64,000 nt of DNA from Bacteroidota bacterium. Its GTDB lineage: Bacteria > Bacteroidota > Bacteroidia > Palsa-965. Below, piece after piece: positions 3,755 through 60,743 of the stretch. Each line of letters opens with the position of its first letter. The first letter of the stretch is position 1. The notes beneath the pieces are model-generated. The model saw only the letters and a program-made list of their open reading frames with translations. It had not been told where the DNA came from and made no database searches. Both the position numbers and the translations under genes were made by a program. The DNA lies in NCBI GenBank assembly GCA_031412295.1, contig JANOCU010000008.1, forward strand, positions 100,921 to 164,920. Reading direction: 5' to 3'.

Positions 3755-3761
3755 TGGTAAA

Positions 3762-3905: not shown

Positions 3906-3908
3906 TTT

Positions 3909-5186
3909 TCAACCAATTTCTAATCCCAAGGATTGAAACAACGTTTTCGCCTTTAACAAACATTCCGCATACTCCTTCTCCGGGTCAGACTTTGCTGTAA
4001 TGGCACTTCCAACCATCAGAGACAAATAGCCGGTTTTCGCATTGTACTGAATGCTCCGGATCACCACATTAAAATCGAAATTCATTTCCGGCGTAAAATA
4101 TCCAGTCGCACCTGAATACAGTCCGCGTTTCATATTTTCAAAATCTTCCGTGAGCTGCATCGCCCTGATCTTTGGTGCGCCGGTCATTGATCCCATTGGA
4201 AAAGCATTTTTAATCGCTTCCACCGGGTGAATTGTTTCGTCAAGAACTGCAGTCACCGTCGAGATCATTTGGTGTACGTTTTTGAACGAATGGATTCCGA
4301 AAAGCTCTTCCACTTTCACGCTTCCTTTTTTTGCAGAGCGGGAAAGATCATTGCGTACAAGATCCACGATCATCACATTTTCACTGCGCTCTTTCGGGTC
4401 GTTAAGCAATTCGGTTTTTAATGCTTCATCTTCTTCCTTGCTTTTTCCTCTTGGCCGCGTGCCTTTGATCGGTTGTGAAATTAATTTATCGTCCTCCTTT
4501 TTTAAAAACCGTTCCGGGCTCGCGCACATCAGCCATTGATCGTGGTATTTATACAACACTGAAAATGGCGCTTCACACAGCTCATTTAATTTACGGTAAA
4601 CAGCAAGAGGGTCAATTGAAACATTTTCCGCGTAAAATTCAATGCAATAATTTATCTCGTAAATATCACCCCGGTGAATATGCGCAAGAAGTGCATTGAC
4701 AGTTGAAATGTATTGCTCCTTTGTTGTGCGCTCCTGCAATGTAAATTGCTGTTCCTGGTTTTTATTTTCATCAGCATGGTTAAAAATGCGAAGGAAATCT
4801 GCAGGAAGAATTTTGTTTTCGGGGACAATCCTGAAATCATCTTTTGTTTTAACCAGCATTAATTCCGGGTTAAAAAAATAAGCCGCAGGAAATTCCATTC
4901 CTGAAAAATGGCGTGAAGAAAGTGTTTCTACCACATTCTTCAGCTCATAGCTGAAATGACCAAAAGCAGTTGCATTTCCCGAAAGAAATTCTTCCAGCTG
5001 CTTAAAAACACGTGCATCTTCATTACCGATAAATTCATTTTCCACGCCGAAACCTGCCATCCATTCAAAAGCACCGTTTTCACTGTTATCCTGGAAAATT
5101 ATTCCCACTTCATTTGTGCTGAAAAGGGAATACAGCTCCGATGGAAGTAAGCTTAATGATGAACGTTTCGTTTCAGTTTGATTCAC
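3909..5186 (-). CDS. pabB: Aminodeoxychorismate synthase component I / anthranilate synthase component I family protein
   Basis: 425 aa with chorismate-binding signatures PERFLK and GSMTGAPKIRAM. The short N-terminus is typical of PabB-type enzymes. Confidence 0.75.
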   Translation of the reverse strand: MNQTETKRSSLSLLPSELYSLFSTNEVGIIFQDNSENGAFEWMAGFGVENEFIGNEDARVFKQLEEFLSGNATAFGHFSYELKNVVETLSSRHFSGMEFPAAYFFNPELMLVKTKDDFRIVPENKILPADFLRIFNHADENKNQEQQFTLQERTTKEQYISTVNALLAHIHRGDIYEINYCIEFYAENVSIDPLAVYRKLNELCEAPFSVLYKYHDQWLMCASPERFLKKEDDKLISQPIKGTRPRGKSKEEDEALKTELLNDPKERSENVMIVDLVRNDLSRSAKKGSVKVEELFGIHSFKNVHQMISTVTAVLDETIHPVEAIKNAFPMGSMTGAPKIRAMQLTEDFENMKRGLYSGATGYFTPEMNFDFNVVIRSIQYNAKTGYLSLMVGSAITAKSDPEKEYAECLLKAKTLFQSLGLEIG

Positions 5187-9661: not shown

Positions 9662-9702
9662 AAGGATGCAAAAGTAGGAAGAAAAGTTGGTGGTAGGGGA
9701 AG

Positions 9703-9778
9703 GGTTGGTGGTTGTAAAAGGTTGGTGGTTGATTCAAAATTCAACATTTATCCCACCAACCTTTTACAACGACCAACC
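9703..9778. repeat. 26-bp inverted repeat (1 mismatch) of ggttggt words with a 24-nt loop, directly upstream of hemH
   Basis: Left arm ggttggtggttgtaaaaggttggtgg (9703-9728) pairs with right arm ccaccaaccttttacaacgaccaacc (9753-9778). The loop contains attcaaaattcaacatt, a motif also present at 39790-39813 (other strand) and 45715-45730. Confidence 0.9.
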
Positions 9779-9789
9779 TCTCCAAAAAA

Positions 9790-38449: not shown

Positions 38450-40000
38450 TTAGAAATGAAAATAAATGAATTCGTTTGAGCTGAAATTTCCGATGGTGAA
38501 GAGAAGAACAAATAGTAACGTATAAAATGCAGGACGTAACCATTTTTCATACGAAGGAAGTTTGTTTATCCAGCCATTTTCTTCGTTCAGCTCTTTCATA
38601 AAAAGAAAAAGTATCCCGCATAAAGCCAAAAGCAACGGGAAGAAATCTTTCAGCGTCCGCAATTCATAATAAGTTGTAATCAAATTATAATCGAAGCTGA
38701 AAATTTTCCGGTAAATAATTCCAAGATCATCAAATGAATTCGCCCTGAACGCGATTAAGGAAATGGTGTGGAATAAAATGAGGTAGAACCAGCCGGCCGC
38801 ACTTCCCAGCGCTGTTCGTTTGTAGTTTGTTGTTTGTTGTTCCTTCGTCCCTCGTCCCCTTTTCGTCCCTCGTCCCTTTTTCAAAAGAATTTCTCCCAAA
38901 TAGAAAACCCCATGCATCGCGCCCCAAATTACAAATGTCCAGCTTGCGCCGTGCCAGAGTCCGCTGATTAAAAAGACGAGAAAAATATTCAGCAGGAATC
39001 TATTGTACGTGCCGCGATTTCCTCCCAGGCTGATGTAGAGATAATCGCGGAACCAGGTGGTCATGCTGATGTGATTGCGCGTCCAGAATTCCTGCAGCGA
39101 TTTTGAAAGCAGCGGCCTGCGCCAATTCAGCTGAAGATCGTAGCCGAAAAATTTTGCAACACCGGTGGCGATATCGGAATAACCTGAAAAATCACAATAC
39201 ACTTGCACGACAAAAAAGAATCCTGCGACAAGAAGTGAGAGTCCGTTGTAATTTTCAGGATGATTAAAAAGCGGGTTAACAAAATCGGCAAGTCGATCGG
39301 CGATGGCAATCTTTTTAAAAAATCCCCAGAGCACGAGGCGTGAACCGAGGAGAATATTTTCTTTGCTTAAATATTTCCGCTCATGAAATTGCACTCCGAG
39401 ATCGGTAAAGCGTGCGATGGGTCCGGCTACAAGCTGCGGAAAAAACGAAACGAACAACGCAAAAATTCCAGGATCTTTTTCAGCTTTTATTGTTCCGCGA
39501 TACACATCGATGACATAACCCATGGAGTGAAACGTGTAAAATGAAAGTCCGACCGGGATAAGAATCGCTTCCAGGTAATGCGGCGACTGATCGGAGAAAT
39601 AAGAACCGGCGAATGAAAATGTATTGTAGAGGAAAGCGAAGTATTTAAATCCGGCTAAACAGGCGAGGTTTGTTATAATACTAATCAATAGCCATGTTTT
39701 GTCCGCACGTTTGTTGTTTGTTGTTTGTTGTTCGTTTGTTGTTTGTTGTTCTGAATTTTGAATCTTGATCCCGATAGGTATCGGGAGAATGTTGAATTTT
39801 GAATTTTGAATTTTTACAGCACAGTACCAATCGATCAAGGTTGTTCCTGCTAATAAAATTCCGAACCAGGGATTCCAGCTCATGTAGAAATAGTAGCTGG
39901 CTGCGAGCAACAAATATCTTCTCCATACAACAGGAACGAGCCAATGGAGGATGAACACCACGGGCAGGAAAATCATGAAGTGGAGCGAGTTGAAGAGCAT
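38450..40000 (-). CDS. MBOAT family O-acyltransferase (AlgI/DltB/PatA-like) carrying two in-frame repeat insertions
   Basis: 516 aa and polytopic, with the invariant-His context LISGLWHGASWTFVIWG. Two low-complexity segments are encoded by intergenic-type word repeats (see the repeat features at 38827 and 39709). Confidence 0.85.
   Translation of the reverse strand: MLFNSLHFMIFLPVVFILHWLVPVVWRRYLLLAASYYFYMSWNPWFGILLAGTTLIDWYCAVKIQNSKFNILPIPIGIKIQNSEQQTTNEQQTTNNKRADKTWLLISIITNLACLAGFKYFAFLYNTFSFAGSYFSDQSPHYLEAILIPVGLSFYTFHSMGYVIDVYRGTIKAEKDPGIFALFVSFFPQLVAGPIARFTDLGVQFHERKYLSKENILLGSRLVLWGFFKKIAIADRLADFVNPLFNHPENYNGLSLLVAGFFFVVQVYCDFSGYSDIATGVAKFFGYDLQLNWRRPLLSKSLQEFWTRNHISMTTWFRDYLYISLGGNRGTYNRFLLNIFLVFLISGLWHGASWTFVIWGAMHGVFYLGEILLKKGRGTKRGRGTKEQQTTNYKRTALGSAAGWFYLILFHTISLIAFRANSFDDLGIIYRKIFSFDYNLITTYYELRTLKDFFPLLLALCGILFLFMKELNEENGWINKLPSYEKWLRPAFYTLLFVLLFTIGNFSSNEFIYFHF
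38827..38890. repeat. In-frame intragenic repeat insertion 2 in the MBOAT gene (gggacga + caacaaa words)
   Basis: The coding strand aaaaagggacgagggacgaaaaggggacgagggacgaaggaacaacaaacaacaaactacaaacg translates to KKGRGTKRGRGTKEQQTTNYKR. The same words occur in spacers 62329-62431 and 3762-3905. Confidence 0.85.
39709..39813. repeat. In-frame intragenic repeat insertion 1 in the MBOAT gene (attcaaa words + tcccgata..tatcggga hairpin + caacaaa words)
   Basis: The coding strand aaaattcaaaattcaaaattcaacattctcccgatacctatcgggatcaagattcaaaattcagaacaacaaacaacaaacgaacaacaaacaacaaacaacaaac translates to KIQNSKFNILPIPIGIKIQNSEQQTTNEQQTTNNK. The core cattctcccgata.ctatcgg matches the intergenic element at 45691-45711. 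Confidence 0.9.
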
Positions 40001-40043
40001 GGTTTAAATGTGCAAATGGGGGAATGTGCAAATGTGCAAATTA

Positions 40044-40242
40044 AATGTGCTAGTGTGCTAATGCGGTAATGTGCTAATGCCGGAGGAGTTTGAAATAGTG
40101 AAACTCTCAAAGAGTTGCGCGTATGCTTTGCGCGCAACTCTTGTAGGGTTGAATGGCGAATAAATTAATCTGAGCAAGGTTGTAATGTCCGATTGTCCTT
40201 AACACACATTAGCACATTACCGCATTAGCACACTAGCACATT
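40044..40242. repeat. Perfect 36-bp inverted repeat separated by 127 bp, with an internal 12-bp-stem hairpin
   Basis: Left arm aatgtgctagtgtgctaatgcggtaatgtgctaatg (40044-40079) pairs with right arm cattagcacattaccgcattagcacactagcacatt (40207-40242). The inner hairpin is aagagttgcgcg (40110-40121) / cgcgcaactctt (40131-40142). It sits in the divergent MBOAT / pssA spacer. Confidence 0.95.
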
Positions 40243-40268
40243 CATTCTTAGCGCTATCTTTGTCGTCG

Positions 40269-41042
40269 ATGAAACTATTTACTATCCCCAATATTATTAC
40301 GTTGCTGAATTTGCTTTGCGGGTGTTTGGCAATTGTATTTGCGTTTGATGGCAATCTTGTTTGGAGTGCTTATTTGGTTGGGATTGCTGCGGTGCTGGAT
40401 TTCTTGGATGGATTTGTTGCGCGGGCACTGAAGCAATATTCGGAAATCGGAAAGCAGTTGGATTCATTGGCGGATATGGTGACGTTTGGTGTGGTGCCAG
40501 GGGTGGTTATGTTTAAACTTATTCAAATTTCGATTTTCCATAACAATCCTGAAACAATGATTTCGGCGCTTAATGGAGATTTGCTTCAGCGCTATCCTCC
40601 TTTGACATATGTAGCTTTCCTTATCCCACTTTTTTCTGCATTGCGGCTTGCGAAGTTTAATATTGATACACGTCAAAGTGATTCTTTCATTGGTGTTCCG
40701 ACGCCTGCAAATGCTATTTTGATTTGTGCTATCCCATTGATACTGAAATTTGGTGGTGACACATTATGGTATGCAAGCACAGACTTACCAATGCTTTTAA
40801 ATACCTGGTCTTTGATTGGACTGACTGTAATTATGTCCATTCTCCTCATTTCCGAAATCCCACTCTTCGCATTAAAATTCAAATCGTTCGGATGGAAGGG
40901 AAATGAAATTCGCTGGAGCTTTTTGGCAGCGGCGGTTTTGCTTTTGGTGACGTTGCAGTTTGTGGGAATTCCATTGGCGATTGTGCTTTATATTTTTATG
41001 TCGGTGGTGAATAATCTGGTGAGCAAAAAGGTTGCCGGCTAG
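40269..41042 (+). CDS. pssA: CDP-diacylglycerol--serine O-phosphatidyltransferase (CDP-alcohol phosphatidyltransferase family)
   Basis: Motif DFLDGFVARAL-x8-GKQLDSLADMV. The ATG at 40269 is preferred over the TTG at 40260. Confidence 0.85.
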   Translation: MKLFTIPNIITLLNLLCGCLAIVFAFDGNLVWSAYLVGIAAVLDFLDGFVARALKQYSEIGKQLDSLADMVTFGVVPGVVMFKLIQISIFHNNPETMISALNGDLLQRYPPLTYVAFLIPLFSALRLAKFNIDTRQSDSFIGVPTPANAILICAIPLILKFGGDTLWYASTDLPMLLNTWSLIGLTVIMSILLISEIPLFALKFKSFGWKGNEIRWSFLAAAVLLLVTLQFVGIPLAIVLYIFMSVVNNLVSKKVAG

Positions 41043-41604: not shown

Positions 41605-41697
41605 GGTTGTTTGTTGTTAGTTGTTTGTCGTTCCTTATGTTTCGATAATTCCCACTATTTTTTAACTACAAACAACAAACTTTTTTAAACAACAAAC
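41605..41697. repeat. Inverted pair of gttgttt / caaacaa heptamer arrays downstream of purS
   Basis: The left side is ggttgtttgttgttagttgtttgtcgtt. The right side is aactacaaacaacaaac ... aaacaacaaac. Confidence 0.85.
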
Positions 41698-41705
41698 ATT
41701 TTTTT

Positions 41706-42329: not shown

Positions 42330-42362
42330 ACACACAGCACCCCACCGGAGAGTCTGCGGAAC

Positions 42363-42498
42363 GGTAAGCAAAGTCCTACACGGAAATCAGCGTGACGGTA
42401 AGCATAATGCTGCCCGAATATCTGCGTACCGGTATACATAACGCTGCCCGAATATCTGCGTACCGGTAAGCATTGTGCTGCATGTGATTTGGTAATCT
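42363..42498. repeat. 34-bp tandem array, about 4 units
   Basis: Units are ggtaagcaaagtcctacacggaaatcagcgtgac / ggtaagcataatgctgcccgaatatctgcgtacc / ggtatacataacgctgcccgaatatctgcgtacc / ggtaagcattgtgctgcatgtgatttggtaatct. They abut directly with no spacers. Confidence 0.9.
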
Positions 42499-42650
42499 TC
42501 CCGATGAAAGATCGGGATGGTAACTGGGTAATTGAAAAAAATATTGGTAGAATTATAATTTCTTGCTGCTAATTATTGCATGAAAAAGGCGAACGGAAAC
42601 GTTCGCCTTTCATTTTGAATTTTTTTAATCGCAACAATTACCCAGTTACC
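42499..42650. repeat. Empty copy of the ggtaactgggtaattg inverted-repeat element (hairpin tcccgat-gaaag-atcggga plus 16-bp perfect IR around a 100-bp core)
   Basis: The IR arms are ggtaactgggtaattg (42519-42534) and caattacccagttacc (42635-42650). The ends are homologous to the ORF-bearing copy at 51907-52496. The core holds the bidirectional terminator hairpin. Confidence 0.85.
42585..42610. terminator. Bidirectional rho-independent terminator between convergent genes
   Basis: aaaggcgaacg-gaaa-cgttcgccttt is an 11-bp perfect stem. It is flanked by an A-run on the left and tcatttt on the right. Confidence 0.75.
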
Positions 42651-42695
42651 AGATTACGAGATTACCAGATGTGCGCTGGCCCTTCGTGCGTGGGC

Positions 42696-43139: not shown

Positions 43140-43183
43140 AAGGAGATGGTGGTTTTGACGTGTGGTTAAAGATAATAGAAAAA

Positions 43184-43255
43184 GGGTGATTGGAAATTGG
43201 GAAATTAGGGAATTGGGAAATTAGGTTGGTTGTTGGTGTTGGAGAAGGGTTGGTG
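43184..43255. repeat. Word arrays tgggaaat / ggttggt
   Basis: Sequence gggtgattggaaattgggaaattagggaattgggaaattaggttggttgttggtgttggagaagggttggtg. Confidence 0.85.
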
Positions 43256-43552
43256 TTTATTTGTAATTAGTAAAATGTAAGACGAAAGATTGACGGGCTA
43301 CGATGAATTAATGGAAGAGAGGGACGAAATAGTACAAAAGATTTATCTGCGCTCTATCCCTGCCTGCCGGCGCGCTTGCATGTGCTGCTGCAGGCAAGAG
43401 CGAACTCTGCGGTAATCTGCGTGGGAATTTTATTTTATCCGTGTCTCGCGAACAAGGTCATTTAGTTGACAGAGATTTCTGTGGGCAGGCGTTACCTGTA
43501 TATTTGGCTAAAACCAATTACGTTATCGTGCATTACCGCGCCATAAATTACG

Positions 43553-43668
43553 CGGTAATAAAAAAGCAGTGTGTTCTTCACGGTAATAAAAAGCTGTGTG
43601 TGTTCTTTACGGTAATAAAAAAGCGGCGGGTGTTCTGCGCGGTAATAAAAAGCGGGGGGCGTTCTTAA
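43553..43668. repeat. 29-30-bp tandem array, 4 units, preceded by a 9-bp-stem hairpin
   Basis: Units are ggtaataaaaaagcagtgtgttcttcac / ggtaataaaaagctgtgtgtgttctttac / ggtaataaaaaagcggcgggtgttctgcgc / ggtaataaaaagcggggggcgttctta. The hairpin is attaccgcg...cgcggtaat at 43531-43558. Confidence 0.9.
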
Positions 43669-43733
43669 TTAAAAAAGAGAATAAAAAAAGTCCACCATTG
43701 CTGATGAACTTTTCTCAATGCAATTAATTACAA

Positions 43734-45626
43734 TTATTCTTTCACCAATCGTGCTACCGATTTTCCTTTTGCAGTATACATGTTTACAAAATAAACACCG
43801 TTTGCAAATACGGATACATCAATTGTAGTTGTTGTGCCGGAAAATGTTTTACTGAAAATTATTTTACCCGAGAGATCCATCAGTTCAATTGTTCCGCTTT
43901 CTGCACCATTTGTTTTGACATAAACAAGATCATGTGCCGGACTTGGATAGAGCTGAAAAGTAGTTTCCTGCGCCGAGTAAATTCCTGTAGAAAGAATAAG
44001 AAAACAATCACTTGTATCTGTACAACCGTTCATCGTTACCGATACAGCGTACGTTCCATTGCTGATTGCCATATAGGATTGATTCGTTGCACCCGGAATT
44101 ATCGCAAAACCATTTGAACAATCGAGCCACTGATATGTTGCGCCTGCAAGATTTGATGTGAGCGTTTCATTCACAACTGAAACAGATGTGTCAGGCTGAT
44201 CAACAGCGATTGAAGTAGTGATCGAACTGTCGCAACCATTTACAGTGGAAAGTGCGCTCGTATAAACAACTGGTGAAGTGATATTGTTTTGCGTTGAACC
44301 GTCAGCGAATGTAAAGCTGTTGCCGCTGCAAACCGTGTACGAATCATTCATCGCATACGTGGAGTTTACATTTACAGTTGTTGTCACTGTGCTGTCGCAT
44401 CCTGCTGCATTCGAAATCGTGCTTGTGTAAATTACCTGCGATGTAATTCCCATTAACATCGAGCCGTCAGGAAAAGTATGATTGCCTCCCGGACAAACTG
44501 CAACTGTTTCACCTGCTGAAGTAGGTTGTAAAACACCAACGTGCGTGATCACCAAACTGTCGCAGCCTCCTGTTGTTTGTAATGTGCTGGTGTAATCTAC
44601 TGAAGAAACAATATTTGTTTGTGTGCTTCCATCAGCAAAAGTAAAACCGCTTCCGCTGCACACAAACGCTGTGTCATTCCTCGAAAGAGGCGCATTCACC
44701 GTTACAGTTGTGCTTACCATTGTATCACAAACAGGTCCGGTTACCAAACTGTTTTGTACAAACGGCGCAGTGATATTTGTTTGTGTTGATCCATCAGGAA
44801 ATGTAAGATCACCACCGCTGCAAATGTTCATGCTTTGCGAGCGGTTGAATGTTGTAAACGGATTTCCTGATGTTGTAACTGTTGCGCCGGAAGTGATCCA
44901 GTTGGATGTTGACGCAGTAAGTGTAAAGTTTGTCAGCGTGCCGTTGAATGCGTTTCCGGAAATATCATTCAATGTAATTGTGCCCGTATTATTTCCGCCA
45001 GCAATTCCCTGGTTGAAATTATAATTTGCAACAAGGTTCGGCTGAACTCCTGTAATGCTGGTGTTCATGTTCGATTGGACCTGGCAATCGGTGCGGTGTT
45101 CGCTCCACACACGTGCTTCATCAAGCGCACCATTAAAATATTGCGCGCCGCCCGGACGTGAACCGAGTGTCATCAGTCCGTTCGTGCCGGTTGATGAAGA
45201 ACCACCTGCAACAGCCGCCTGCAGCACACCATTAAAAAGCACTTGAGGTGTAAGCGTGCTTGCATTCCACCGCGCTGCAACATGCGTCCACTGATTTTGC
45301 GGAATGCCTGCAGTCGTTGCAATGCTGTAGGTAGTACCGTTAGCAATCACATAAAAATAAATGACATTGCCTGTGCTGGTTGATACAGTCGCAAAATTGG
45401 TAGTGGAAGGTTGCGCAAAGAAAATGCGCGTAAAAGCATTCCCACGCGGATTCACCCATGCTTCAAACGTAAAGCTGTTTGTTGCAAGGTTGGAAAAAAG
45501 TGTTGGAATGGTGTTAGAAACTACCATGTCATTCGTCCCGTCAAAATCCAGCGCATTGCCGGCGAATTGAGCGAAAACAGGGGAGAAGCTGAGAAGTGAA
45601 AAAGCAAGAAGTAAACGTTTGATCAT
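43734..45626 (-). CDS. Secreted LamG/concanavalin-A-like lectin domain protein with Cys-bounded repeats and T9SS C-terminal sorting domain
   Basis: A signal peptide is followed by an N-terminal LamG-type region (ALDFDGTNDMV...FTFEAWV...GALDEARVW). There are four ~47-aa modules of the form C.G..FTF.DGS.Q.NI....Y.S.....GCDS. The C-terminus is LYPSPAHDLVYV...NGVYFVNMYTAKGKSVARLVK. Confidence 0.7.
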   Translation of the reverse strand: MIKRLLLAFSLLSFSPVFAQFAGNALDFDGTNDMVVSNTIPTLFSNLATNSFTFEAWVNPRGNAFTRIFFAQPSTTNFATVSTSTGNVIYFYVIANGTTYSIATTAGIPQNQWTHVAARWNASTLTPQVLFNGVLQAAVAGGSSSTGTNGLMTLGSRPGGAQYFNGALDEARVWSEHRTDCQVQSNMNTSITGVQPNLVANYNFNQGIAGGNNTGTITLNDISGNAFNGTLTNFTLTASTSNWITSGATVTTSGNPFTTFNRSQSMNICSGGDLTFPDGSTQTNITAPFVQNSLVTGPVCDTMVSTTVTVNAPLSRNDTAFVCSGSGFTFADGSTQTNIVSSVDYTSTLQTTGGCDSLVITHVGVLQPTSAGETVAVCPGGNHTFPDGSMLMGITSQVIYTSTISNAAGCDSTVTTTVNVNSTYAMNDSYTVCSGNSFTFADGSTQNNITSPVVYTSALSTVNGCDSSITTSIAVDQPDTSVSVVNETLTSNLAGATYQWLDCSNGFAIIPGATNQSYMAISNGTYAVSVTMNGCTDTSDCFLILSTGIYSAQETTFQLYPSPAHDLVYVKTNGAESGTIELMDLSGKIIFSKTFSGTTTTIDVSVFANGVYFVNMYTAKGKSVARLVKE

Positions 45627-45655
45627 CAGGGGAGTTTTTTATGAATCGCGAAGAT

Positions 45656-45821
45656 AATTCAAAATTCAAGATTCAAGATTCAAAATTGGACATTCTCCCG
45701 ATAGCTATCGGTTTCAACATTCAAAATACTCTTGAATTTAAAGTCATAGCCTAAAACTCAAAACTCAAAACTCGAAACCGAAACTCGAAACTCTGAACTA
45801 AAAACTCCGAACTAAAAACTA
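45656..45821. repeat. Composite intergenic element: attcaaa heptamers, hairpin ccgatagctatcgg, then ctcaaaa to ctccgaa heptamers running into a stop codon
   Basis: The left part reads aattcaaaattcaagattcaagattcaaaatt and the palindrome lies at 45698-45711. The right part reads ctaaaactcaaaactcaaaactcgaaaccgaaactcgaaactctgaactaaaaactccgaactaaaaacta. Confidence 0.9.
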
Positions 45822-46271
45822 CCCTTCACATAAATCCTTCAAATCATTCAAAGCCTTCGGCCACATTTCTTCCATCATCTTTTTATATTCTTCAGATGTT
45901 TGCATTTCAATTTTTACTTCGGTCTTGTCGCCTTTGTCAACGAATGTGTAATTCTCCAATGCAGGAGTCCACTTTTTTACTTCTTCGCTTGTGGTATCTA
46001 CTACGCCGTTCTTTATCATTCCCAGGTGTTCGATCGAAATAAATTCATGCGGCACATTTTCTTTGATGCGGGCGTACATGCCTTCTTTGTTTCCTTTATC
46101 ATCCGTAGGTCCGTAAAAATGAATTTCACTTCCCTTTTCCCAGCTGCCTTCGTAATACGAACCTTCATGAAATGCTTTTGTCCACTGACGATACGTTTCG
46201 TCGTTCAGCATTGTATTCCATACTTTTTGTTTGTCCGCGTTGATCTCGATTGAAAAGTTTAATGTTTCCAT
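45819..46271 (-). CDS. SRPBCC / AHSA1 (START-like) domain protein
   Basis: 150 aa. The sequence METLNFSIEINADKQKVWNTMLNDETYRQWT fits the pattern of Aha1-like SRPBCC proteins. Confidence 0.65.
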   Translation of the reverse strand: METLNFSIEINADKQKVWNTMLNDETYRQWTKAFHEGSYYEGSWEKGSEIHFYGPTDDKGNKEGMYARIKENVPHEFISIEHLGMIKNGVVDTTSEEVKKWTPALENYTFVDKGDKTEVKIEMQTSEEYKKMMEEMWPKALNDLKDLCEG

Positions 46272-46330
46272 GGTTAAAATAATTTAAATTTTTAAAATTC
46301 TAAGTTCGTTGCAATTCAAAGATCTCTTAT

Positions 46331-46412
46331 CGTAATTCCGGTAATCCGTAATTGGTAATCCGGTAATTGGTAATCCGGTAATTGGTAATCTGTAATCCGG
46401 TAATCTGTAATC
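46331..46412. repeat. ggtaatc-type 7-8-nt tandem array
   Basis: Sequence cgtaattccggtaatccgtaattggtaatccggtaattggtaatccggtaattggtaatctgtaatccggtaatctgtaatc. Confidence 0.9.
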
Positions 46413-46420
46413 TTTTCCCC

Positions 46421-46885
46421 TTATTGTTTAAACATTTCATCAAAACGCTTTTGCATTTCTTCGAAGCTTACATCTTCTTTGTGCGTTGTGAGGCTCCACT
46501 TATAACCAAACGGATCCATCACCTGCCCGATACGATCGCCATAAAATTCATCTTTAAGCGGCATAACAACTTTTCCACCCGCATCAATTGCTTTCTGAAA
46601 TGCTGCATCCACATCTTTCACATACAGCGCGAAGCCCATCGGATTGCCACCAATAGTTTCCGGGCTTTTATTTCCCCAATCCAGGTTTTCATCCGCCATC
46701 ATCAGCAACGAACCTTCAATTTCAATTTCTGCATGTCCGACTTTTCCATTCGGCATAGTGAGTATACCAACTTCTTTTGCGTCGAATGCTTCTTTGTACC
46801 ATTCGATTGCTTTTTTGCAATCTTTAAGCGTGATGTAAACGCCGAGTGAGTGGGAGCCGGGATAGATGTGTGATTTTGGTTTCAT
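46421..46885 (-). CDS. VOC family (glyoxalase/PhnB-like) protein
   Basis: 154 aa. The stretch AIEWYKEAFDAKE...GKVGHAEIEIEGSLLMMADE...DPFGYKWSL is typical of PhnB-like VOC proteins. Confidence 0.8.
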   Translation of the reverse strand: MKPKSHIYPGSHSLGVYITLKDCKKAIEWYKEAFDAKEVGILTMPNGKVGHAEIEIEGSLLMMADENLDWGNKSPETIGGNPMGFALYVKDVDAAFQKAIDAGGKVVMPLKDEFYGDRIGQVMDPFGYKWSLTTHKEDVSFEEMQKRFDEMFKQ

Positions 46886-46962
46886 GGGTAAGGATTTAGA
46901 TATGGTTTATGGATAAGAATTAAGAATTCAAAAAGTTATATGTGCAAATATACTACAGGTAA

Positions 46963-47448
46963 TTAGTTTTTTTTCGGGGAAGAAATTATTCCTCTGAAAA
47001 TAATTAATGCGAAAAATATATATTGTATTGTCCAAACCGGAAGGTTAACAAGACCTTCTGTTATAATGGTGCTGCGGGAAATGCTGTCAGCATAACTTTC
47101 CATTGCAAGTTTGTACTCAGGCGATCTGAAATTGCTAATAACTATTTCTAATACGAATTGAAGGACTTGTGTAAAAATATAGGACAATATAAAAAAGATA
47201 AAGCCTTTTTTCACGATCAATAAATCTTCAAAATTATATTTTATTATTTTTTTTGTAAATAAGAAAAACAAAAGAAGAGTAATTGCTAACGATCCATATT
47301 TAGAAGCTCCATAAATAAGAAATGGGTTGATTTGAAAATTCAAAAGTGCTCTTTCAAAACCTTCATAAAATATATATAAAGTGGCCTGGAAGGTTAGGCA
47401 GGCAAATATTCCGATTCCGATTAGACCGATGATTTGTTGTTTTTTCAT
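46963..47448 (-). CDS. Hypothetical polytopic membrane protein
   Basis: The preferred start is MKKQQIIGLIGIGIFACL (ATG at 47448). About 5 TM helices are predicted. No family recognised. Confidence 0.45.
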   Translation of the reverse strand: MKKQQIIGLIGIGIFACLTFQATLYIFYEGFERALLNFQINPFLIYGASKYGSLAITLLLFFLFTKKIIKYNFEDLLIVKKGFIFFILSYIFTQVLQFVLEIVISNFRSPEYKLAMESYADSISRSTIITEGLVNLPVWTIQYIFFALIIFRGIISSPKKN

Positions 47449-47470
47449 GATGGGGGTTGGGGGATGTTCT

Positions 47471-47950
47471 TTATTTATTTCTTGTTTCCTGTTCCTTCCA
47501 AAGCGACTCTTCATTAACATCAAACACATATTTATTAAGAACGCCTATGATTTCTTCAAAAGTATTTGTTTCATCAATTGCAAACTTTATTACATCTGCC
47601 TCTTCATATTGAGTTATAATATCATCGTCTTTGTCAACACAAACTTTTAAACTATTTTTTAGTTCCTCGAGTGAATAAGTTTCTTTAAAGATCCAAATGA
47701 TTTTTGCTTCGTGAGTTGGATTATAAAATGTTTTTGCAAGAACTTTAGTAAGCCAATTGTTTTTAAATTTTTCGAAAATTTTACGATAAGTCCACTTGTT
47801 TCCCATGCTGTCAAATAAAATTTCCTTTTCAAAACAAGTTGGATCAATCAAGGCAATTGTTGAAACCCAGGAAGATGAAAGTTCGTTTGGGATTAGGTCA
47901 AATCCTCCGTCAGTGGAAAGGGAAATTAATGGGAATGTTGGATTTGTCAT
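47471..47950 (-). CDS. Hypothetical protein
   Basis: 159-aa ORF with an acidic C-terminal half. No family recognised. Confidence 0.45.
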   Translation of the reverse strand: MTNPTFPLISLSTDGGFDLIPNELSSSWVSTIALIDPTCFEKEILFDSMGNKWTYRKIFEKFKNNWLTKVLAKTFYNPTHEAKIIWIFKETYSLEELKNSLKVCVDKDDDIITQYEEADVIKFAIDETNTFEEIIGVLNKYVFDVNEESLWKEQETRNK

Positions 47951-48010
47951 TAGAATTAAAGTCCTATCTAATTATCAGTTTTTATTTGCGAGTTATTAGC
48001 GAGTGTGATA

Positions 48011-49168
48011 TTAAATCATTTTTACTTTTTCAATAACCTCAATTCCTAAAACGTTTCTTACTTTAATCAGCACTTTTGGGAACTGGCCTTCTAACGCTAA
48101 AATTACTCTGCAATCAGGTTGTTGATTATTTACGATCTGTTCAGCTTCAATTAAATGTATATATTTTACACATTGAAAGAGCCCACGGAGAATGTCTGCA
48201 TTGTCGGAAATTTTTGATTTTACTTCAACGCCGATCTTAGTGTTGAGTGAGGTAAAAACTATATCTACTGTGTCCGCAGATGGTAAGCAATATTCTGTTT
48301 TACCAACACCAACCGTCACTGGCAGGCCAATTGATGCCGGATGTTTTGCAATGAAATTTTTAAACGCAAGGTGAAAAGGACTTTCACCTCCATTGCCTCT
48401 TATTCGTTTTGCTTCTTCAATTATGGGCCTGATATCTGTTTTTAAAGGTTCAAGATTTAATTGTTGAAGAACCCAATCCCACTGTTGAAAGGCATAAATA
48501 TTAGTTAAAACTCTGTTAACGGTTTGCTCCTTTTGGCTCCTGGACTGTTTTTTAAAATCTGCCATATTTATAAACCAAGCAATCCCTTCACCTGGCAATC
48601 TGGTGTTTTTATTTATTACCAAACATTGAATTTGTGGAATTTCTATTTTGGATTTTTTGCTGAGTTTTATTAATGCTTTTCCTATTGCACCAAGAACGTA
48701 ATTTAAATTTCTTGGATTAGGAATAGCAGTTTCTTCAGCAAGATCGGAATAGAAAATTGTTTGACCAGCCTTAGCTTGTCTGATCAAATAGGGTAATACG
48801 ATCCTTGCTCTTTGAAGGTATATCTTATTACCTGCTAAGTCAGAATTTGCAATTTGAGCTGTTTGGCGAATTTTGTTAGACGTAATCTTTATACTGCTAG
48901 TTGTGGCTAATAAATATTTAGCCCCGATGGCCCACCGAATTTCCCCATTTTTTTTATTTAATCCACCTTTTTTACTTTGTAATGCATTTCTTAAAGTACG
49001 GTGCCAATCCAACTCTTTATTGTTGGGTGTCACGGGTGCAAGATCGTCTTTCGTAAAGCTGTTAAAATTATCTTCAACGATTTTGTATAAAGAAGAAATA
49101 TGGAGCCACTCTTCTCGGGGCATATTTTCTACTAAAATTGCCCAAAGGGTATTAGATGCGGTTTTCAT
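48011..49168 (-). CDS. Three-domain protein: N-terminal winged-helix (Mrr_N-like), central MGMT/ATL-like wHTH-type module, C-terminal PD-(D/E)xK nuclease fold
   Basis: The C-terminus reads GGESPFHLAFKNFIAKHPASIGL...ADTVDIVF...IGVEVKSK...RGLFQCVKY, with a D...E-x-K arrangement. The middle reads GQTIFYSDLAEETAIPNPRNLNYVLGAIG...IPQIQCLVINKNTRLPGEG. The N-terminus has ...DWHRTLRNALQSKKG...GEIRW. All assignments come from motif recognition only. Confidence 0.5.
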   Translation of the reverse strand: MKTASNTLWAILVENMPREEWLHISSLYKIVEDNFNSFTKDDLAPVTPNNKELDWHRTLRNALQSKKGGLNKKNGEIRWAIGAKYLLATTSSIKITSNKIRQTAQIANSDLAGNKIYLQRARIVLPYLIRQAKAGQTIFYSDLAEETAIPNPRNLNYVLGAIGKALIKLSKKSKIEIPQIQCLVINKNTRLPGEGIAWFINMADFKKQSRSQKEQTVNRVLTNIYAFQQWDWVLQQLNLEPLKTDIRPIIEEAKRIRGNGGESPFHLAFKNFIAKHPASIGLPVTVGVGKTEYCLPSADTVDIVFTSLNTKIGVEVKSKISDNADILRGLFQCVKYIHLIEAEQIVNNQQPDCRVILALEGQFPKVLIKVRNVLGIEVIEKVKMI

Positions 49169-49184
49169 TACGAGATTCGTCTTT

Positions 49185-50069
49185 TTATGTTTTTACAAAA
49201 TGCTGAATATTTGTTGGGTTAGAGCCAATTGGCTTTAATTGTCCAATTGAAAGCCAAGTAATTTTATTTGAATTGATATCTTGAATTAAATTTTGAGAAA
49301 AAAGTAGAAGATTAGCTGTGTCAATTCTTCTGGTATTTTTTTCTAATATTTCTTTCAAAGTCTTTTCATCCCCTACTTTTAATGATGTGACTTTAAACCA
49401 TACCAGCTCTATAAAGTCCTTGTAATTGTCAATTATTGTATCAAGTTCAGATTTTGCTTCTTTGTCAATTAGGTATAAGTTTTTCAATAAATGTTCTACT
49501 ATTCCTAAAACGATATATAATTTTTTGTCGGAGGGTACAACCATATCATGAATAGAATCATTGCCTAAAAACCTTATGGAATGAAGTCGGTTGGATTCCT
49601 TTTCAGTGATCAATTTTTTCTTTAATAAGTTAGATATTTTTTGTTCTAAATTACCTCCTTTAATTCCTTCTTCGATGCAGATAGCTTCAATAATAGCTCT
49701 AAAGCCAACCCCTGCTAACAAAAAGCTTTTGGACTTAAAAGTTTCGATTGTTTCTAAATAAACAGTTCTGATTCTCTCGGGGATGTAGTAGTAGTTAGAA
49801 ATTAAATTGTGATCAAGTAAATAAGGAGGATGACATTTTATTGAATTGTATGAATATTCATTCCCTTCTTCATCGTAGTTTACCATTTCTTCATGAGAAT
49901 AAATTTCCCTGAACTGTATTGAAGAACAACCATTACATTCTATTATTTGGTATTCTGTACTCCAATGAAAATCTTCATCGCGAGATGAGGACTCTTCTTT
50001 AGTAAATAAAATTGAATGTTTGGTTTCGCGCCTACATGAGACGCAATAATTTAATAAATTGGATGTCAT
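49185..50069 (-). CDS. Zinc-ribbon + DUF4145 domain protein
   Basis: The N-terminus has CVSC...CNGC. The central region YLETIETFKSKSFLLAGVGFRAIIEAI...LHSIRFLGNDSIHD matches the DUF4145 pattern (R..GN...H) as I recall it. Confidence 0.6.
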   Translation of the reverse strand: MTSNLLNYCVSCRRETKHSILFTKEESSSRDEDFHWSTEYQIIECNGCSSIQFREIYSHEEMVNYDEEGNEYSYNSIKCHPPYLLDHNLISNYYYIPERIRTVYLETIETFKSKSFLLAGVGFRAIIEAICIEEGIKGGNLEQKISNLLKKKLITEKESNRLHSIRFLGNDSIHDMVVPSDKKLYIVLGIVEHLLKNLYLIDKEAKSELDTIIDNYKDFIELVWFKVTSLKVGDEKTLKEILEKNTRRIDTANLLLFSQNLIQDINSNKITWLSIGQLKPIGSNPTNIQHFVKT

Positions 50070-50169
50070 GATTGTTTTTTTGTTCTTAATTGTCCGATAT
50101 TGGGTTATCCAAATTCTTTGAAAATTACTCCTAAATATTAGACATTACACAAATTATCCGACAACAAAC

Positions 50170-50189
50170 GCTTGTAAACGTTTACAAGC
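50170..50189. promoter_or_regulatory. Perfect 20-bp palindrome in the divergent spacer between the DUF4145 operon and comM
   Basis: The sequence is gcttgtaaac|gtttacaagc. It lies 100 bp upstream of the 50069 start and 170 bp upstream of comM. Confidence 0.3.
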
Positions 50190-50360
50190 AATTAACTCCG
50201 TTTAACCTCCCCCAAACATTTCCTTTCCTCAAAAATTTCTCTTTCATTTGCCACCCAGAAAACACACATCACACAACTACATCATCCTATATTTTTCCCA
50301 TTAGCATCAATATCAAATTAGCAGTTTTTTAGTTCCACATCTTATTCATAAATCCAACAC

Positions 50361-51902
50361 ATGAGTTTAGTAAAAACCTACGGCTGCGCCGTATACGGAA
50401 TCTCCGCAACAACAGTAACCGTCGAAGTAAACATCGACACAGGAATCAACTTTCACATCGTCGGTCTTCCCGACAGCGCCGTCAAAGAATCACAACAACG
50501 CATCGACGCTGCATTAAAAAACAACGGCTTTAAAATTCCAGGAAAAAAGATCACCGTCAATCTTGCGCCGGCGGATATTCGCAAGGAAGGTTCTTCGTAT
50601 GATCTTCCGATTGCGATGGGAATTCTTTGCGCGTCGGGGCAATTGCTTGCGGATGATATTTCGGAATACGTGATCATGGGCGAACTTTCGCTTGATGGAA
50701 TTTTGCGGCCGGTGCGTGGTTCGTTGCCGATGGCGATTCATGCAAAAGCTTCCGGGTTTAAAGGATTAATTCTTCCTGCTGAAAATGCGAAGGAAGCTGC
50801 TGTCGTCGAAGGAATAAATATTTACAGCATGTCGCATATTTCTGATGTGATCAGCTTCTTCGAAGGGAATTCTGAAGCGCTGCCCGTGAAAATAGATCTC
50901 GAAGCAGAATTTTCGAAGCCTCCGAATTCATTCGACGTCGATTTCTCTGATGTGAAAGGCCAGGAAAATATTAAACGTGCATTGGAGATCGCTGCTTCGG
51001 GCGGACATAATATTCTCATGGTTGGTCCGCCCGGCGCCGGTAAAACGATGCTTGCAAAACGGCTTTCAGGAATTCTTCCGCCAATGACATTGGATGAAGC
51101 TTTGGAAACAACGAAGATTCATTCTGTCGCAGGAAAAACTTCGAAGAATGCAGGTCTTGTTACAACGCGCCCCTTCCGCGCGCCGCATCATACGATCTCT
51201 GATGTTGCTTTAGTAGGAGGTGGTTCCAATCCGCAACCCGGAGAAATTTCTCTCGCGCACAACGGCGTTTTATTTCTTGATGAATTGCCCGAATACAAAC
51301 GTTCTGTGCTCGAAGTAATGCGTCAGCCACTCGAAGATCGCATCGTCACCATTTCACGCGCGAAGTTCACTGTTGTTTATCCCGCAGGATTTATGCTCGT
51401 CACTTCGATGAATCCATGTCCGTGCGGCTATTACAACCATCCCGAAAAAGAATGCGTCTGTCCTCCCGGCGGCGTGCAGAAATATCTCAATCGTTTATCC
51501 GGACCGTTACTCGATCGCATCGACATTCACATCGAAGTAACACCGGTCGGATTCAGCGAGCTCACCGATCGCCGTCCCGCAGAATCCAGCGCAGTAGTAA
51601 GAGAACGCGTAGTAAAAGCGCGCTTGATCCAGCTCAAACGTTTCGAGGGCATGGAAGGAATTTATTCGAACGCACAAATGAACGCAAGCCTTCTAAGAGA
51701 CGTTTGCCGCATCGACGAAGCAGGACAACAATTATTAAAAACCGCGATGGAACGTTTGGGATTATCCGCAAGAGCCTACGACCGAATCCTGAAAGTAGCA
51801 AGAACCGTAGCAGACTTAGACGGATCGCAAGCCATAGAATCGCAACATTTAGCAGAAGCAATACAATACAGAAGTCTTGACAGGGAGAATTGGGCGGGCT
51901 GA
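50361..51902 (+). CDS. comM: YifB/ComM family Mg-chelatase-like AAA+ ATPase
   Basis: 513 aa with a Lon-protease-like N-domain, Walker [15 protein letters not shown], Walker [10 protein letters not shown] and a C-terminal ChlI-like region. Confidence 0.9.
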
Positions 51903-51906
51903 TGGG

Positions 51907-52496
51907 ATCTGGTAATCTGGTAACTGGGTAATTGAATTGCGATTGAAAGAAAAAAATTGAAATAAAAAACTAAATGAATAAAATTATGACATCTGAAGAT
52001 TTGAAGAAACGAACCAAATTGTTTGCAATTAATGCTATTCATTTTTCTAAAACGTTGCCCAAAAATGATGAAGGGTTTATTGTGAAGAAGCAGCTTATTC
52101 GTTGTGCAACTTCTGTGGGTGCGAATTATAGGGCGGTTTGTCGTGCGCGTTCTACGGCAGACTTTATTTCAAAGCTTGCAATTGTAGAAGAAGAAGCCGA
52201 CGAAACATGTTTTTGGTTAGAAGTGCTCGAAGAAAGTGGAATGATAAGCAAAGAATCCGTAGCGAAGCTGTACGATGAATCAACACAATTAACCGCAATC
52301 TTCTCCGCCAGCCGAAAAACCAGCAGAATGAACAATGATAAATACAAATAGTTTTATTAGCACTAAGTGTAACCTTCCCGATTTATCGGGACCTCACTTA
52401 TAAATATTTTAAATACCCACTTTCAATATTTTAATTACCCACTTTCAATATTTTAATTACCCACTTATCAATTTCCCAGTTACCAGATTACCAGAT
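51907..52496. repeat. ORF-bearing copy of the ggtaactgggtaattg inverted-repeat element (28-bp IR, 27/28 match) enclosing the four-helix-bundle gene
   Basis: The left arm is atctggtaatctggtaactgggtaattg (51907-51934). The right arm is caatttcccagttaccagattaccagat (52469-52496). Inside lie the ORF 51974..52351, the hairpin tcccgat-tt-atcggga (52376-52391), and 22-bp direct repeats cccactttcaatattttaatta x2.5 (52416-52474). Confidence 0.9.
51974..52351 (+). CDS. Four-helix-bundle protein (23S rRNA intervening-sequence protein / Avd-like family)
   Basis: 125 aa. The stretch LIRCATSVGANYRAVCRARSTADFISKLAIVEEEADETCFWLEVL is the family hallmark as I recall it (TIGR02436-type). Confidence 0.85.
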   Translation: MNKIMTSEDLKKRTKLFAINAIHFSKTLPKNDEGFIVKKQLIRCATSVGANYRAVCRARSTADFISKLAIVEEEADETCFWLEVLEESGMISKESVAKLYDESTQLTAIFSASRKTSRMNNDKYK

Positions 52497-52507
52497 TACT
52501 AAATCAA

Positions 52508-52687
52508 GTGCATGATAATGTTGATGGCTTAGGTTACGTGCATGATAATGTTGATGGCATAGATTACGTGCAGCAGTATGGTGATGGTACAGGTTACTTG
52601 TAGCAGTATGCTGATTGTTCAGGTTACGTGCAGCAGTATGTTGATGGTTCAGGCTAGGTGCAGGAGTATGTTGATAGTATTTGTTGC
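52508..52687. repeat. 30-bp tandem array, 6 units
   Basis: Units are gtgcatgataatgttgatggcttaggttac / gtgcatgataatgttgatggcatagattac / gtgcagcagtatggtgatggtacaggttac / ttgtagcagtatgctgattgttcaggttac / gtgcagcagtatgttgatggttcaggctag / gtgcaggagtatgttgatagtatttgttgc. Confidence 0.9.
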
Positions 52688-52760
52688 GCCAGTCGGCTTA
52701 TCTTTGCACACGGTGATGATTGATGATCACAGTAAATTAACAACAACATTCAACATTCTT

Positions 52761-53591
52761 ATGCGCACGTTTCTTTTTGTTTGCTTATTTATTTCATCAT
52801 CACTTTTCGCCCAGCGCGATTCTGTTATTAACGGAATCAAATGTCATCTCATTTCGGAAAGCCGTGATACCGGAACTGTGTGGATCCAGCGGAAGATCGT
52901 AAATAAAAAAAAGAATACTGAAAAATTCGGTGGACGCTATTGGGAATTTTATCCGGGTGGAAAATTAAAAGCATCAGGCTATTATAAAAATGGGAAGCGT
53001 GATGAAAAGTGGATTCGTTATTATCAAAACGGACAACGATCGGAGGAAGGATATTTTGACAATGGTTTAAAATCAGATCTCTGGATGACGTATTTTGAAT
53101 CCGGTAAAATGTCGTGGAAAGGAAACTTTTTTAAGAATATTCGTTCAGGTGTCTGGCGATATTTTTATGAAGACGGGAAATTAAAAGGCATGACACGATA
53201 CAGGATCAAAACACAAAAGATTGCGAAAAAACCAAAGGCCGGAGTAAAAAGAGGAATAGCAATAGGTGCTTACAAGGAAGTAACGTACACCATTTCTCCT
53301 GCTGATTCGCTTGTGGAATATTACCCGGATGGAAAATTACGGACACGGATCACATACGGACATGAAGGTGGATTGACCGGTAGTTATGCAATGTATTATG
53401 ATAATGGAACAATTAAAACACGCGGCCAATATTCTGAAGGGAAAAAAACCGGTACATGGGAATATTTTTGTTCTTCCGGTACGTTGTATTTTAAAGGAAC
53501 TGAACTCAATCCAAATTATACAGATGGACCGTGTGAGTTTGTGGAAGAACTACCGTGGCTGAAATGGGAAGTGGAGCAAATCACACTTTAA
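52761..53591 (+). CDS. MORN-variant repeat protein (YwqK-like), secreted
   Basis: The ATG at 52761 gives signal peptide MRTFLFVCLFISSSLFAQ. There are repeated G.....G.Y.NG...G.W..YY.NG units. The track start at 52578 translates the 30-bp tandem array. Confidence 0.75.
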   Translation: MRTFLFVCLFISSSLFAQRDSVINGIKCHLISESRDTGTVWIQRKIVNKKKNTEKFGGRYWEFYPGGKLKASGYYKNGKRDEKWIRYYQNGQRSEEGYFDNGLKSDLWMTYFESGKMSWKGNFFKNIRSGVWRYFYEDGKLKGMTRYRIKTQKIAKKPKAGVKRGIAIGAYKEVTYTISPADSLVEYYPDGKLRTRITYGHEGGLTGSYAMYYDNGTIKTRGQYSEGKKTGTWEYFCSSGTLYFKGTELNPNYTDGPCEFVEELPWLKWEVEQITL

Positions 53592-56107: not shown

Positions 56108-56330
56108 TAGTTCGGAGTCCGCCGCGCGGATTAGTTTTTAGTTCGGAGAATTAGGTTGGAGTTTTTAGTGATTAGTTCGGAGAGTTAGTTCGGAGTTTTT
56201 AGTGGTTAGTTCTGAGAGTTTAGTTGAAAGAGAATAATTTATAATTCTCCTAACAAAAAATTGAAACTCTGAACCCTAAACCCTAAACCCGAAACTTTTC
56301 TCCGAACTAACCACTCCGAACTAACCACTA
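56108..56330. repeat. tagttcggag / ctccgaacta word arrays in inverted orientation, with core hairpin tccgccgcgcgga
   Basis: The core lies at 56118-56130. The 17-bp IR is tagtggttagttctgag (56200-56216) versus ctccgaactaaccacta (56314-56330), with 1 mismatch. The right arm abuts the M43 gene stop. The centre contains gaaccctaaaccctaaacccgaaac. Confidence 0.9.
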
Positions 56331-60675: not shown

Positions 60676-60743
60676 AAGTTGTCAGTTTTCAGTTGTCGGT
60701 TGTCAGCATAGCCTTTCGACTGACTACTGACAACTGACTACTT
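60676..60743. repeat. Imperfect inverted heptamer arrays (gttgtca / tgacaac) in the atpD-atpC intercistronic spacer
   Basis: The left arm is aagttgtcagttttcagttgtcggttgtcag. The right arm is actgactactgacaactgactactt. The arms are roughly 80 percent complementary. Confidence 0.85.

Follow-up and report, generated by a model that had tools for sequence, protein, structure and literature searches.

To our knowledge, the four-helix-bundle family of 23S rRNA intervening sequence (IVS) proteins is structurally solved and related to the Avd proteins of diversity-generating retroelements (DGRs), with no function known outside DGRs, and the intergenic heptamer arrays of bacterial genomes, recorded over decades, still have neither a mechanism nor a partner protein. 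The IVS in the Coxiella 23S rRNA gene is closed by a terminal stem of 28 bp, interrupted by one mismatch and a bulge, carries tandem GACAGAT heptamers ahead of the start of its S23p open reading frame (ORF), and is cut by RNase III, the cleavage having been mapped at the first repeat (PMC4990558). Genes of the 23S_rRNA_IVP type have been reported within cas operons (PMC3936711) and at several 16S and 23S rRNA sites in bacteria of the Candidate Phyla Radiation (bioRxiv 10.1101/2024.02.27.582315). Here, we analyse a gene of this family in a 64,000-nucleotide stretch of a Bacteroidota genome (contig JANOCU010000008.1, positions 100,921 to 164,920; hereafter the window), where it lies outside rRNA and is enclosed by an inverted repeat whose arms are built from short tandem words. 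We refer to the arms and everything between them as the cassette. Such stem-packaged, stand-alone four-helix-bundle genes outside rRNA seem to be undescribed; a full-text literature search, with most subscription journals outside its coverage, returned no description of them in word-built inverted repeats.

In REP/RAYT systems, a transposase gene is flanked in inverted orientation by short repeats dispersed through the same genome, and RNase III stems around the precursors of 16S and 23S rRNA and at sites in the early mRNA of phage T7 cut discrete RNAs from a transcript. Tandem 7-nt arrays, among them STRR in cyanobacteria, GGGAATC in Xanthomonas, GGGGAYT in Nostoc and TAACTGA in Beggiatoaceae, cyanobacteria and Bacteroidetes, occur between genes, frequently a short way upstream of start codons, and differ in copy number; for Xanthomonas campestris, 70 cases in which paired repeat sites converge in inverted orientation were counted, out of 186 repeat patterns (PMC4692102, PMC4679880). 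The TAACTGA heptamers of Beggiatoaceae were proposed as sites of a post-transcriptional regulator (PMC4679880), and these papers on heptamer arrays make no mention of PF05635, IVS or four-helix-bundle proteins (PMC4692102, PMC4679880). A study of DGRs searched for Avd-binding RNA stem-loops (bioRxiv 10.1101/2023.10.23.563531), and both Avd and Xcc0516 are pentamers (PMC4990558; bioRxiv 10.1101/2023.10.23.563531).

The cassette and its inverted repeat

A preliminary description of this locus, drawn from the window alone, had proposed a 28-bp inverted repeat around a single small gene. The repeat was confirmed, with arms of 29 nt that are 97% complementary (one mismatch) and lie 532 nt apart (Table 1). 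The arm words are 8 nt long. With three mismatches or fewer, the 28-mer has three occurrences in the window as against none in 100 shuffles, and the flank-to-flank inverted-repeat score of the cassette is 26, compared with a maximum of 12 in local shuffles. When the region 51895-52510 was folded as RNA, the arms formed the terminal stem in both the minimum-free-energy and the centroid structures (z = -5.8), and a second, partial tier of pairing joined the leader to the 22-nt repeats, in which CTTTCAAT can pair with ATTGAAAG of the leader. The leader also holds GCGATTGAAAG, which alignment finds conserved in the orthologs and in an ORF-less copy described below.

Table 1. Features of the cassette, its neighbours and its ORF-less homolog (positions in the window)
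Feature	Position	Strand	Remarks
Upstream host gene, ComM/YifB-type Mg-chelatase-like AAA+ protein, 513 aa	50361..51902	+	Pfam Mg_chelatase E=1e-96, ChlI, Mg_chelatase_C
5' arm of inverted repeat	51907..51935	.	Words ATCTGGTA, ATCTGGTA, ACTGGGTA, then ATTGA; G/T-rich
A-rich leader, 50 nt	51936..51985	+	Between 5' arm and start codon
Four-helix-bundle protein gene, 121 aa, PF05635/TIGR02436	51986..52351	+	Alternative start 51974, giving 125 aa
Mini-hairpin TCCCGAT-TT-ATCGGGA	52376..52391	.	25 nt past the four-helix-bundle stop codon
22-nt direct repeats (AATATTTTAATTACCCACTTTC)	52403..52468	.	Adjoining 3' arm; 3 copies; Tandem Repeats Finder (TRF): 3.5 copies
3' arm of inverted repeat	52468..52496	.	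A/C-rich complement of words
30-nt tandem array	52518..52675	.	5.3 copies, directly outside 3' arm
ORF-less cassette homolog, inverted orientation	42484..42670	-	Arms 42484-42534 and 42635-42670

The four-helix-bundle gene is the only convincing ORF between the arms. Its product had been given as 125 aa; since homologs are nearly all 119-122 aa long and begin at the MTSEDL position, translation probably starts at the ATG at 51986, not at 51974, and the length is probably 121 aa. The protein matches the PF05635 profile with 64.6 bits (cutoff 33.8) and TIGR02436 with 87.6 bits (cutoff 24), among solved structures it is closest to PDB 2RLD (E=3e-18 over residues 6-115), deposited with five chains, and it is mildly basic (pI 8.8). 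One search returned at least about 8,000 homolog matches. The gene is under strong purifying selection, with a ratio of nonsynonymous to synonymous substitution rates (dN/dS) of about 0.05 against the orthologs on two related Bacteroidota contigs, L001 and L002. Its dS against L001 (51986-52351) is 1.41, about twice the 0.71 of the adjacent comM C-terminus (51153-51899), and the protein identities are discordant: ComM is 98% and the four-helix-bundle protein 89% identical in L001, while the ComM C-terminus is 89% and the four-helix-bundle protein 97% identical in L002. The dS excess and these identities give a hint of recombination or of a local rise in mutation rate.

The stop codon of the comM-like gene, at 51902, stands 4 nt ahead of the left arm, and the four-helix-bundle start codon follows 84 nt after that stop. 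Promoter-like matches of the sigma-70 type in 51500-52900 did not rise above shuffles, a consensus that is inapplicable to Bacteroidota. An Rfam scan of the window gave no family at the gathering threshold and no rRNA; a sub-threshold snoRNA match in the cassette region was judged to be chance. Past the gene, the small hairpin CCCGATTTATCGGG noted earlier is present (52377-52390), with a copy at the equivalent relative place in L002-L005, and the 22-bp repeat, first counted as 2.5 copies, is there in three full copies, or 3.5 by TRF. The 30-nt array outside the 3' arm is also found in L002, L003 and L005 with variable copy number (L003 and L005 differ), and it is not certain that this adjacent feature belongs to the cassette.

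The likeness to an rRNA IVS that had been suggested for this locus is borne out by the Coxiella element, with its 28-bp stem, heptamers and RNase III cleavage (PMC4990558). ORF-bearing 23S rRNA IVSs of Coxiella burnetii and Leptospira (S23p ORF) share with the cassette a protein of the same family in the loop, a terminal stem of about 28 bp with one mismatch, and heptamer or octamer words in the 5' arm near the start codon, in strain-variable copy number. Unlike them, the cassette lies outside rRNA, between comM and a MORN-repeat gene, and its ORF is under purifying selection, in contrast to that of Coxiella, which is in decay and probably not translated; cleavage by RNase III, mapped in Coxiella, would be a prediction for the window cassette. 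The cassette thus has the structural features of an IVS and lacks the defining one, location in an rRNA gene.

Other described systems resemble the cassette in part. Like intergenic heptamer arrays, the arms consist of tandem intergenic units of 6-9 nt (8 nt in the window) in convergent inverted pairs, but the arrays here specifically bracket one gene family. As in REP/RAYT, a gene is flanked by inverted copies of short repeats dispersed in the genome; the protein, however, is a small helical bundle without HUH or Y1 motifs, and the words are locus-specific with no genome-wide consensus. The RNase III stems of rRNA precursors and T7 offer a functional analogy, double-stranded stems that release a discrete RNA, but they are not word-built and enclose no small protein gene. 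Terminal inverted repeats and one ORF-less homolog in the window recall MITEs (miniature inverted-repeat transposable elements) or transposons with terminal inverted repeats, from which the cassette differs in having no target-site duplication and arms that differ among orthologs at a fixed site. With DGRs it shares the four-helix-bundle fold homologous to that of Avd, a basic pentamer. No reverse transcriptase domain was found by a Pfam scan of the ten ORFs within about 10 kb, and self-BLAST of the window gave only tandem arrays and two short hairpin pairs, without any pair resembling a template repeat and a variable repeat. We therefore reject DGR membership, as the preliminary description had done.

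Relatives across phyla and orthologs behind comM

A census of the family had been proposed, and its outcome was strongly positive. The sample comprised the 80 best loci retrieved with the cassette protein as query from contigs of one genome per species, with proteins 48-69% identical to it, from Acidobacteriota, Planctomycetota, Patescibacteria, Verrucomicrobiota, Bacteroidota, Desulfobacterota, Chloroflexota and other phyla. Each gene was scored by the best ungapped inverted repeat between its upstream and downstream flanks. Word-built flanking inverted repeats with scores of at least 15 were found in 65 of 79 relatives. A score of at least 13 was reached by 59 of 77 four-helix-bundle genes and by only 15 of 277 neighbouring ORFs (5%) in the same loci (Mann-Whitney p = 7e-28; Fisher p = 1e-36), and the top-scoring control ORFs mostly adjoin a cassette and share its words.

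In the relatives, the left arm ends at a median of 19 nt ahead of the start codon. The right arm starts, in the median, 1 nt short of where the stop codon ends, and in many loci within the last codons. The 5' arm is G/T-rich in 61 of the 65 loci with repeats; the word period is 7 in 44 of these relatives and 8 in seven. In 63 of 71 cases (89%; background 63%, p = 1e-6) the gene points in the direction of its upstream neighbour, at a median gap of 65 nt. None of the 20 related loci checked for rRNA location lay in rRNA. Three patescibacterial loci (L009 3442-3513, L013 2813-2884 and L082 3779-3851) have a tRNA gene about 30-420 nt downstream of the cassette on the same strand. In several loci, genes adjoining the cassette (158, 208 and 232 aa) are likewise enclosed by the same words, so that three arrays stand in a row in the order complement words, gene, words, four-helix-bundle gene, complement words (L056/L057 2478-2954, L062 3382-3858, L033/L049 about 2310-2940, and L048/L070).

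The preliminary description had also proposed a functional link to the word-repeat system, of which the association stands and nothing beyond it. Arrays of period 6-9 have a density of 1.85/kb beside these genes and 0.30/kb elsewhere in the same loci, a sixfold difference, with 0.47/kb in the window, 0.12/kb in comM loci that do not have the gene and none in the shuffled window. An exact word of the cassette arms recurs in ORF-less arrays of the same locus in 49% of cases, versus 21% for the arms of other loci.

Cultured carriers of such genes include Nostoc punctiforme PCC 73102 (plasmid pNPUN01, NPUN_RS34315), Gloeocapsa sp. PCC 7428 (GLO7428_RS25575), Bernardetia sp. Wsw4-3y2, Mucilaginibacter aquariorum JC4 (L036) and Moheibacter stercoris DSM 29388 (L076). 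On plasmids of cyanobacteria, Chloroflexota and Bacteroidota that were cultured or enriched, five of six copies carry word-built inverted repeats, namely Planktothrix, Gloeocapsa, two Nostoc and Chlorohelix, several of them within defence operons (the defence-linked plasmid loci are L172, L173, L175 and L176). The Planktothrix gene lies between a co-directional DISARM drmD and an MmeI-type enzyme, and its arms are of the opposite polarity, the 5' arm being A/C-rich. The Gloeocapsa and Chlorohelix genes occupy the same position, between a co-directional DUF1156 gene and one for a Swt1-family HEPN protein, and the Nostoc punctiforme copy adjoins XisH/XisI and TnsA. In the Chlorohelix locus (L176 1300-2000), hairpin, gene and hairpin follow one another, with a repeated unit of about 100 nt. 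A scan of viral contigs returned only the same subfamily, mostly with word repeats and with no reverse-transcriptase-like ORF nearby, and the match in a phage collection was one distant stand-alone PF05635 gene with neither a repeat nor a reverse transcriptase. The IVS architecture of rRNA is thus the normal packaging of this subfamily, found at housekeeping genes, in defence operons and beside tRNA genes, and it links three observations made separately: rRNA IVSs, stand-alone four-helix-bundle genes and heptamer word arrays.

The order comM followed by a four-helix-bundle gene is common to L001, L002-L006, L086-L090 and the P0018 contig, all related Bacteroidota contigs. The four-helix-bundle proteins of these orthologs are 66-97% identical to that of the window, and wherever the comM C-terminus was measured (L001, L006, L086, L088 and L089), its identity is 93.5% or higher. 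Every comM-linked ortholog gene is enclosed by an inverted repeat, but the words are lineage-specific: GGTAATCT / GGTAACTG in the window, L001 and L002, GCCGATT / TTCGATT in L086, GCCAATT in L087 and GTCGATT / GCCGATT in L088. In a cross-comparison of the window, L001, L002/3, L086, L087 and L088, arms of the same cassette score 17-37, while a left arm against the right arm of another diverged lineage scores 7-15, near chance. Mixed word orders are mirrored exactly between the two arms, and the number of words varies among near-identical strains. Because the words have been replaced jointly in both arms, with mixed orders mirrored, the two arms evolve in concert, whether by selection for pairing or by the copying of one arm from the other. 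Conserved with matched arm changes among orthologs and recurrent across phyla, the packaging makes a stronger case than could be known from the window alone.

The 80 more distant metagenomic comM loci (64-80% identity) do not have this gene, which makes the cassette a clade-specific acquisition, since then inherited vertically at the comM site; none of the 80 offered an alignable empty site, as these loci are too diverged to define insertion boundaries. One of the 80, L093 (comM ortholog of 77% identity), instead has a very distant PF05635 gene (3429-3785) directly after comM, with complete GAGAATG/CATTCTC hairpins on both sides of it (3250-3950).

Readings of the cassette

We consider it about an even bet (probability roughly 0.5) that the cassette is an IVS-type stem-loop outside rRNA that is transcribed by read-through and whose stem is cut by RNase III. 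Because the cassette stands directly behind comM with little room for a promoter of its own, read-through from comM would be the most likely source of its transcript. In that transcript the arms would pair as a long-range stem of about 29 bp with the four-helix-bundle gene in the loop; the double-stranded stem would probably be cut by RNase III, as it is for the same architecture in 23S rRNA, and cleavage would release a discrete four-helix-bundle mRNA separated from the host transcript. Such a separation would explain why the element is tolerated in rRNA genes, defence operons and ordinary strings of genes. Transcription through both arms, cleavage by RNase III and the role of the protein are what we infer here; the reading at the level of RNA is favoured because of the tight fit of the arms around the gene, the short co-directional gap and the RNase III precedent in rRNA. 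By analogy with Avd, which binds structured RNA, the protein may bind the stem or the word arrays. If the stem were a general self-excising wrapper, a selfish or accessory gene could live in operons without polar damage.

Several observations weigh against this RNA-level reading. G:U-compatible mismatches in the arms, which should be in excess if selection for pairing acted on the sense RNA only, number 38 in the sense strand versus 41, and 10 versus 14 among isolated mismatches; the arms could instead be kept alike at the DNA level, and a process such as template switching within the hairpin is possible. Between the arms of the ORF-less copy lies a hairpin resembling a terminator, so that both arms would be co-transcribed there only on read-through. 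The IVS RNA excised in Coxiella is unstable, and S23p is unlikely to be produced (PMC4990558), so that excision need not serve expression. About 18% of the relatives have no inverted repeat, and neither has the distant PF05635 gene from the phage collection, L188 (32% identity), because of which the word-repeat association may be a property of the subfamily and not of all PF05635. For the window organism, co-transcription and cleavage are themselves inferred.

A mobile or recombining DNA element, its arms being terminal repeats or single-stranded DNA hairpins used by host or trans-acting recombination or replication, is a rather doubtful alternative; the gene would be cargo or an accessory, and the ORF-less hairpins MITE-like non-autonomous derivatives. 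It would account for the two homologous copies in the window, one of them ORF-less and similar beyond the arms, for the second homologous hairpin pair (39755-39814 / 45668-45727), for closest relatives outside the clade that lie, among the best loci, in unrelated phyla, and for copies on plasmids, on viral contigs and within defence operons. A comparison of Arthrospira strains has two four-helix-bundle genes among strain-unique genes (PMC8700078), the missing G:U bias is consistent with complementarity at the DNA level, and the hairpin-gene-hairpin layout of L093 and L176 recalls duplication on insertion. Yet there is no transposase or recombinase in or beside the cassette, inspection of the window, L086 and L088 found no target-site duplication at the arm ends, and the arms of orthologs are wholly different at a fixed site, which is unexpected for ends recognized by a sequence-specific enzyme; moreover, the cassette stays behind comM down to 66% protein identity, and no alignable empty site turned up among the 80 more distant comM loci. 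As for the mobility suggested earlier, the cassette at this site is a stable companion of comM that is inherited vertically and has not moved recently; patchy spread across phyla, copies in operons and an ORF-less homolog 9 kb away speak indirectly for movement.

It is unlikely, in our judgement, that the word arrays are repeated RNA or DNA binding sites of a multimeric protein with the inverted symmetry being secondary, although that multimer could be the pentameric four-helix-bundle protein itself, leading to autoregulation or packaging. The strict periodicity of 7-8 nt with three to five words per arm would suit such sites, as would the median of 19 nt from the start codon, with TAACTGA in Beggiatoaceae placed similarly (PMC4679880), the five chains of 2RLD and the pentamers of Xcc0516 and Avd, the mildly basic protein, and arrays that also occur singly and are denser in loci with these genes. 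The base-for-base mirroring of mixed word orders, in contrast, indicates pairing or copying and not independent sites, and words that differ wholly where proteins are 66-73% identical fit poorly with sequence-specific recognition. That PF05635 proteins are the trans-acting partner of dispersed inverted heptamer-word arrays, the cassette being the 'autonomous' form of the ORF-less hairpins, is an equally speculative proposal, with a pentameric protein that would bind, stabilise or help to copy the word hairpins in the manner of RAYT/REP or Avd. If true, it would explain both the very large PF05635 family and the heptamer arrays of cyanobacteria, Xanthomonas, Bacteroidota and others. Far less credible than any of these is coincidence, in which a small gene happens to sit within one of the many intergenic word hairpins of the genome: the window does contain some 30 arrays with periods of 6-9 and numerous inverted pairs that enclose no ORF, but flanking repeats mark 5% of neighbouring ORFs (80 loci) compared with 77-82% of these genes, and the layout recurs across phyla, on finished plasmids and among orthologs. 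The neighbour-ORF control leads us to reject chance as an explanation.

Other word hairpins in the window

The ORF-less version of the element reported earlier is real, with a pronounced RNA fold (z = -8.6), and can now be refined: it lies in the opposite orientation and, when reversed, aligns to both ends of the cassette, including about 25 nt of leader beyond one arm and the bases just outside the other. Its arm at 42484-42534 is interrupted by a CCCGAT...ATCGGG mini-hairpin (42500-42516), and its loop holds the terminator-like hairpin (42585-42610), between convergent genes. A 34-nt array (3.8 copies, 42353-42481) stands on the equivalent side of the ORF-less element, and by eye its unit looks related to the 30-nt unit at 52518-52675 (GTTACG...GCAGCA..TATG). 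The orthologous intergenic site of relatives also carries a word hairpin, its words unlike those of their own cassette; in the maps of L086 and L088 it lies about 1.3-1.5 kb upstream of comM, where the window has about 7 kb inserted. The two window copies would thus have arisen by duplication or been homogenised; of the local features, they hint most strongly at movement or gene conversion, proving neither. The stretch of about 7 kb between a 147-aa gene and comM (about 43140-50360) encodes a Laminin_G_3 / Por_Secre_tail protein, an AHSA1-like protein, a DUF4145 protein and others, while in L088 and the P0018 contig the 147-aa gene and comM are only a few hundred bases apart.

The pattern CCCGAT-N(2-9)-ATCGGG occurs three times in the window (39770-39785, 42500-42516 and 52377-52390) versus none expected, always within intergenic regions with word hairpins; a near-copy lies at about 45696-45712. 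The hairpins at 39755-39814 and 45668-45727 form a second homologous pair, 87% identical over 60 nt in inverted orientation, the mini-hairpin being surrounded by GAATTTT/AATTCAA words. Multi-copy families also exist among word hairpins that are not cassettes. No remnant of the four-helix-bundle gene was detected in the other word hairpins of the window (tblastn, E up to 50).

Many intergenic regions of the window contain inverted pairs of arrays of 7-8-nt words that are specific to the region, for example 1832-1925, 3753-3917, 9698-9783, 40006-40242, 41606-41703, 56131-56330 and 60677-60742, and in these the G/T-rich version is mostly the 5' arm, on either strand. The gene at 40260-41042 has CATTAGCA arrays on both sides and an inverted partner at 40044-40079. 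A tandem array of 29-30-nt units (CGGTAATAAAAAAGCGG..GTTCTTCA, about 3.9 copies) occupies 43553-43666, and a long CGGTAAT array of about ten copies 46332-46413; both use words of the GGTAAT type that resemble the cassette arms.

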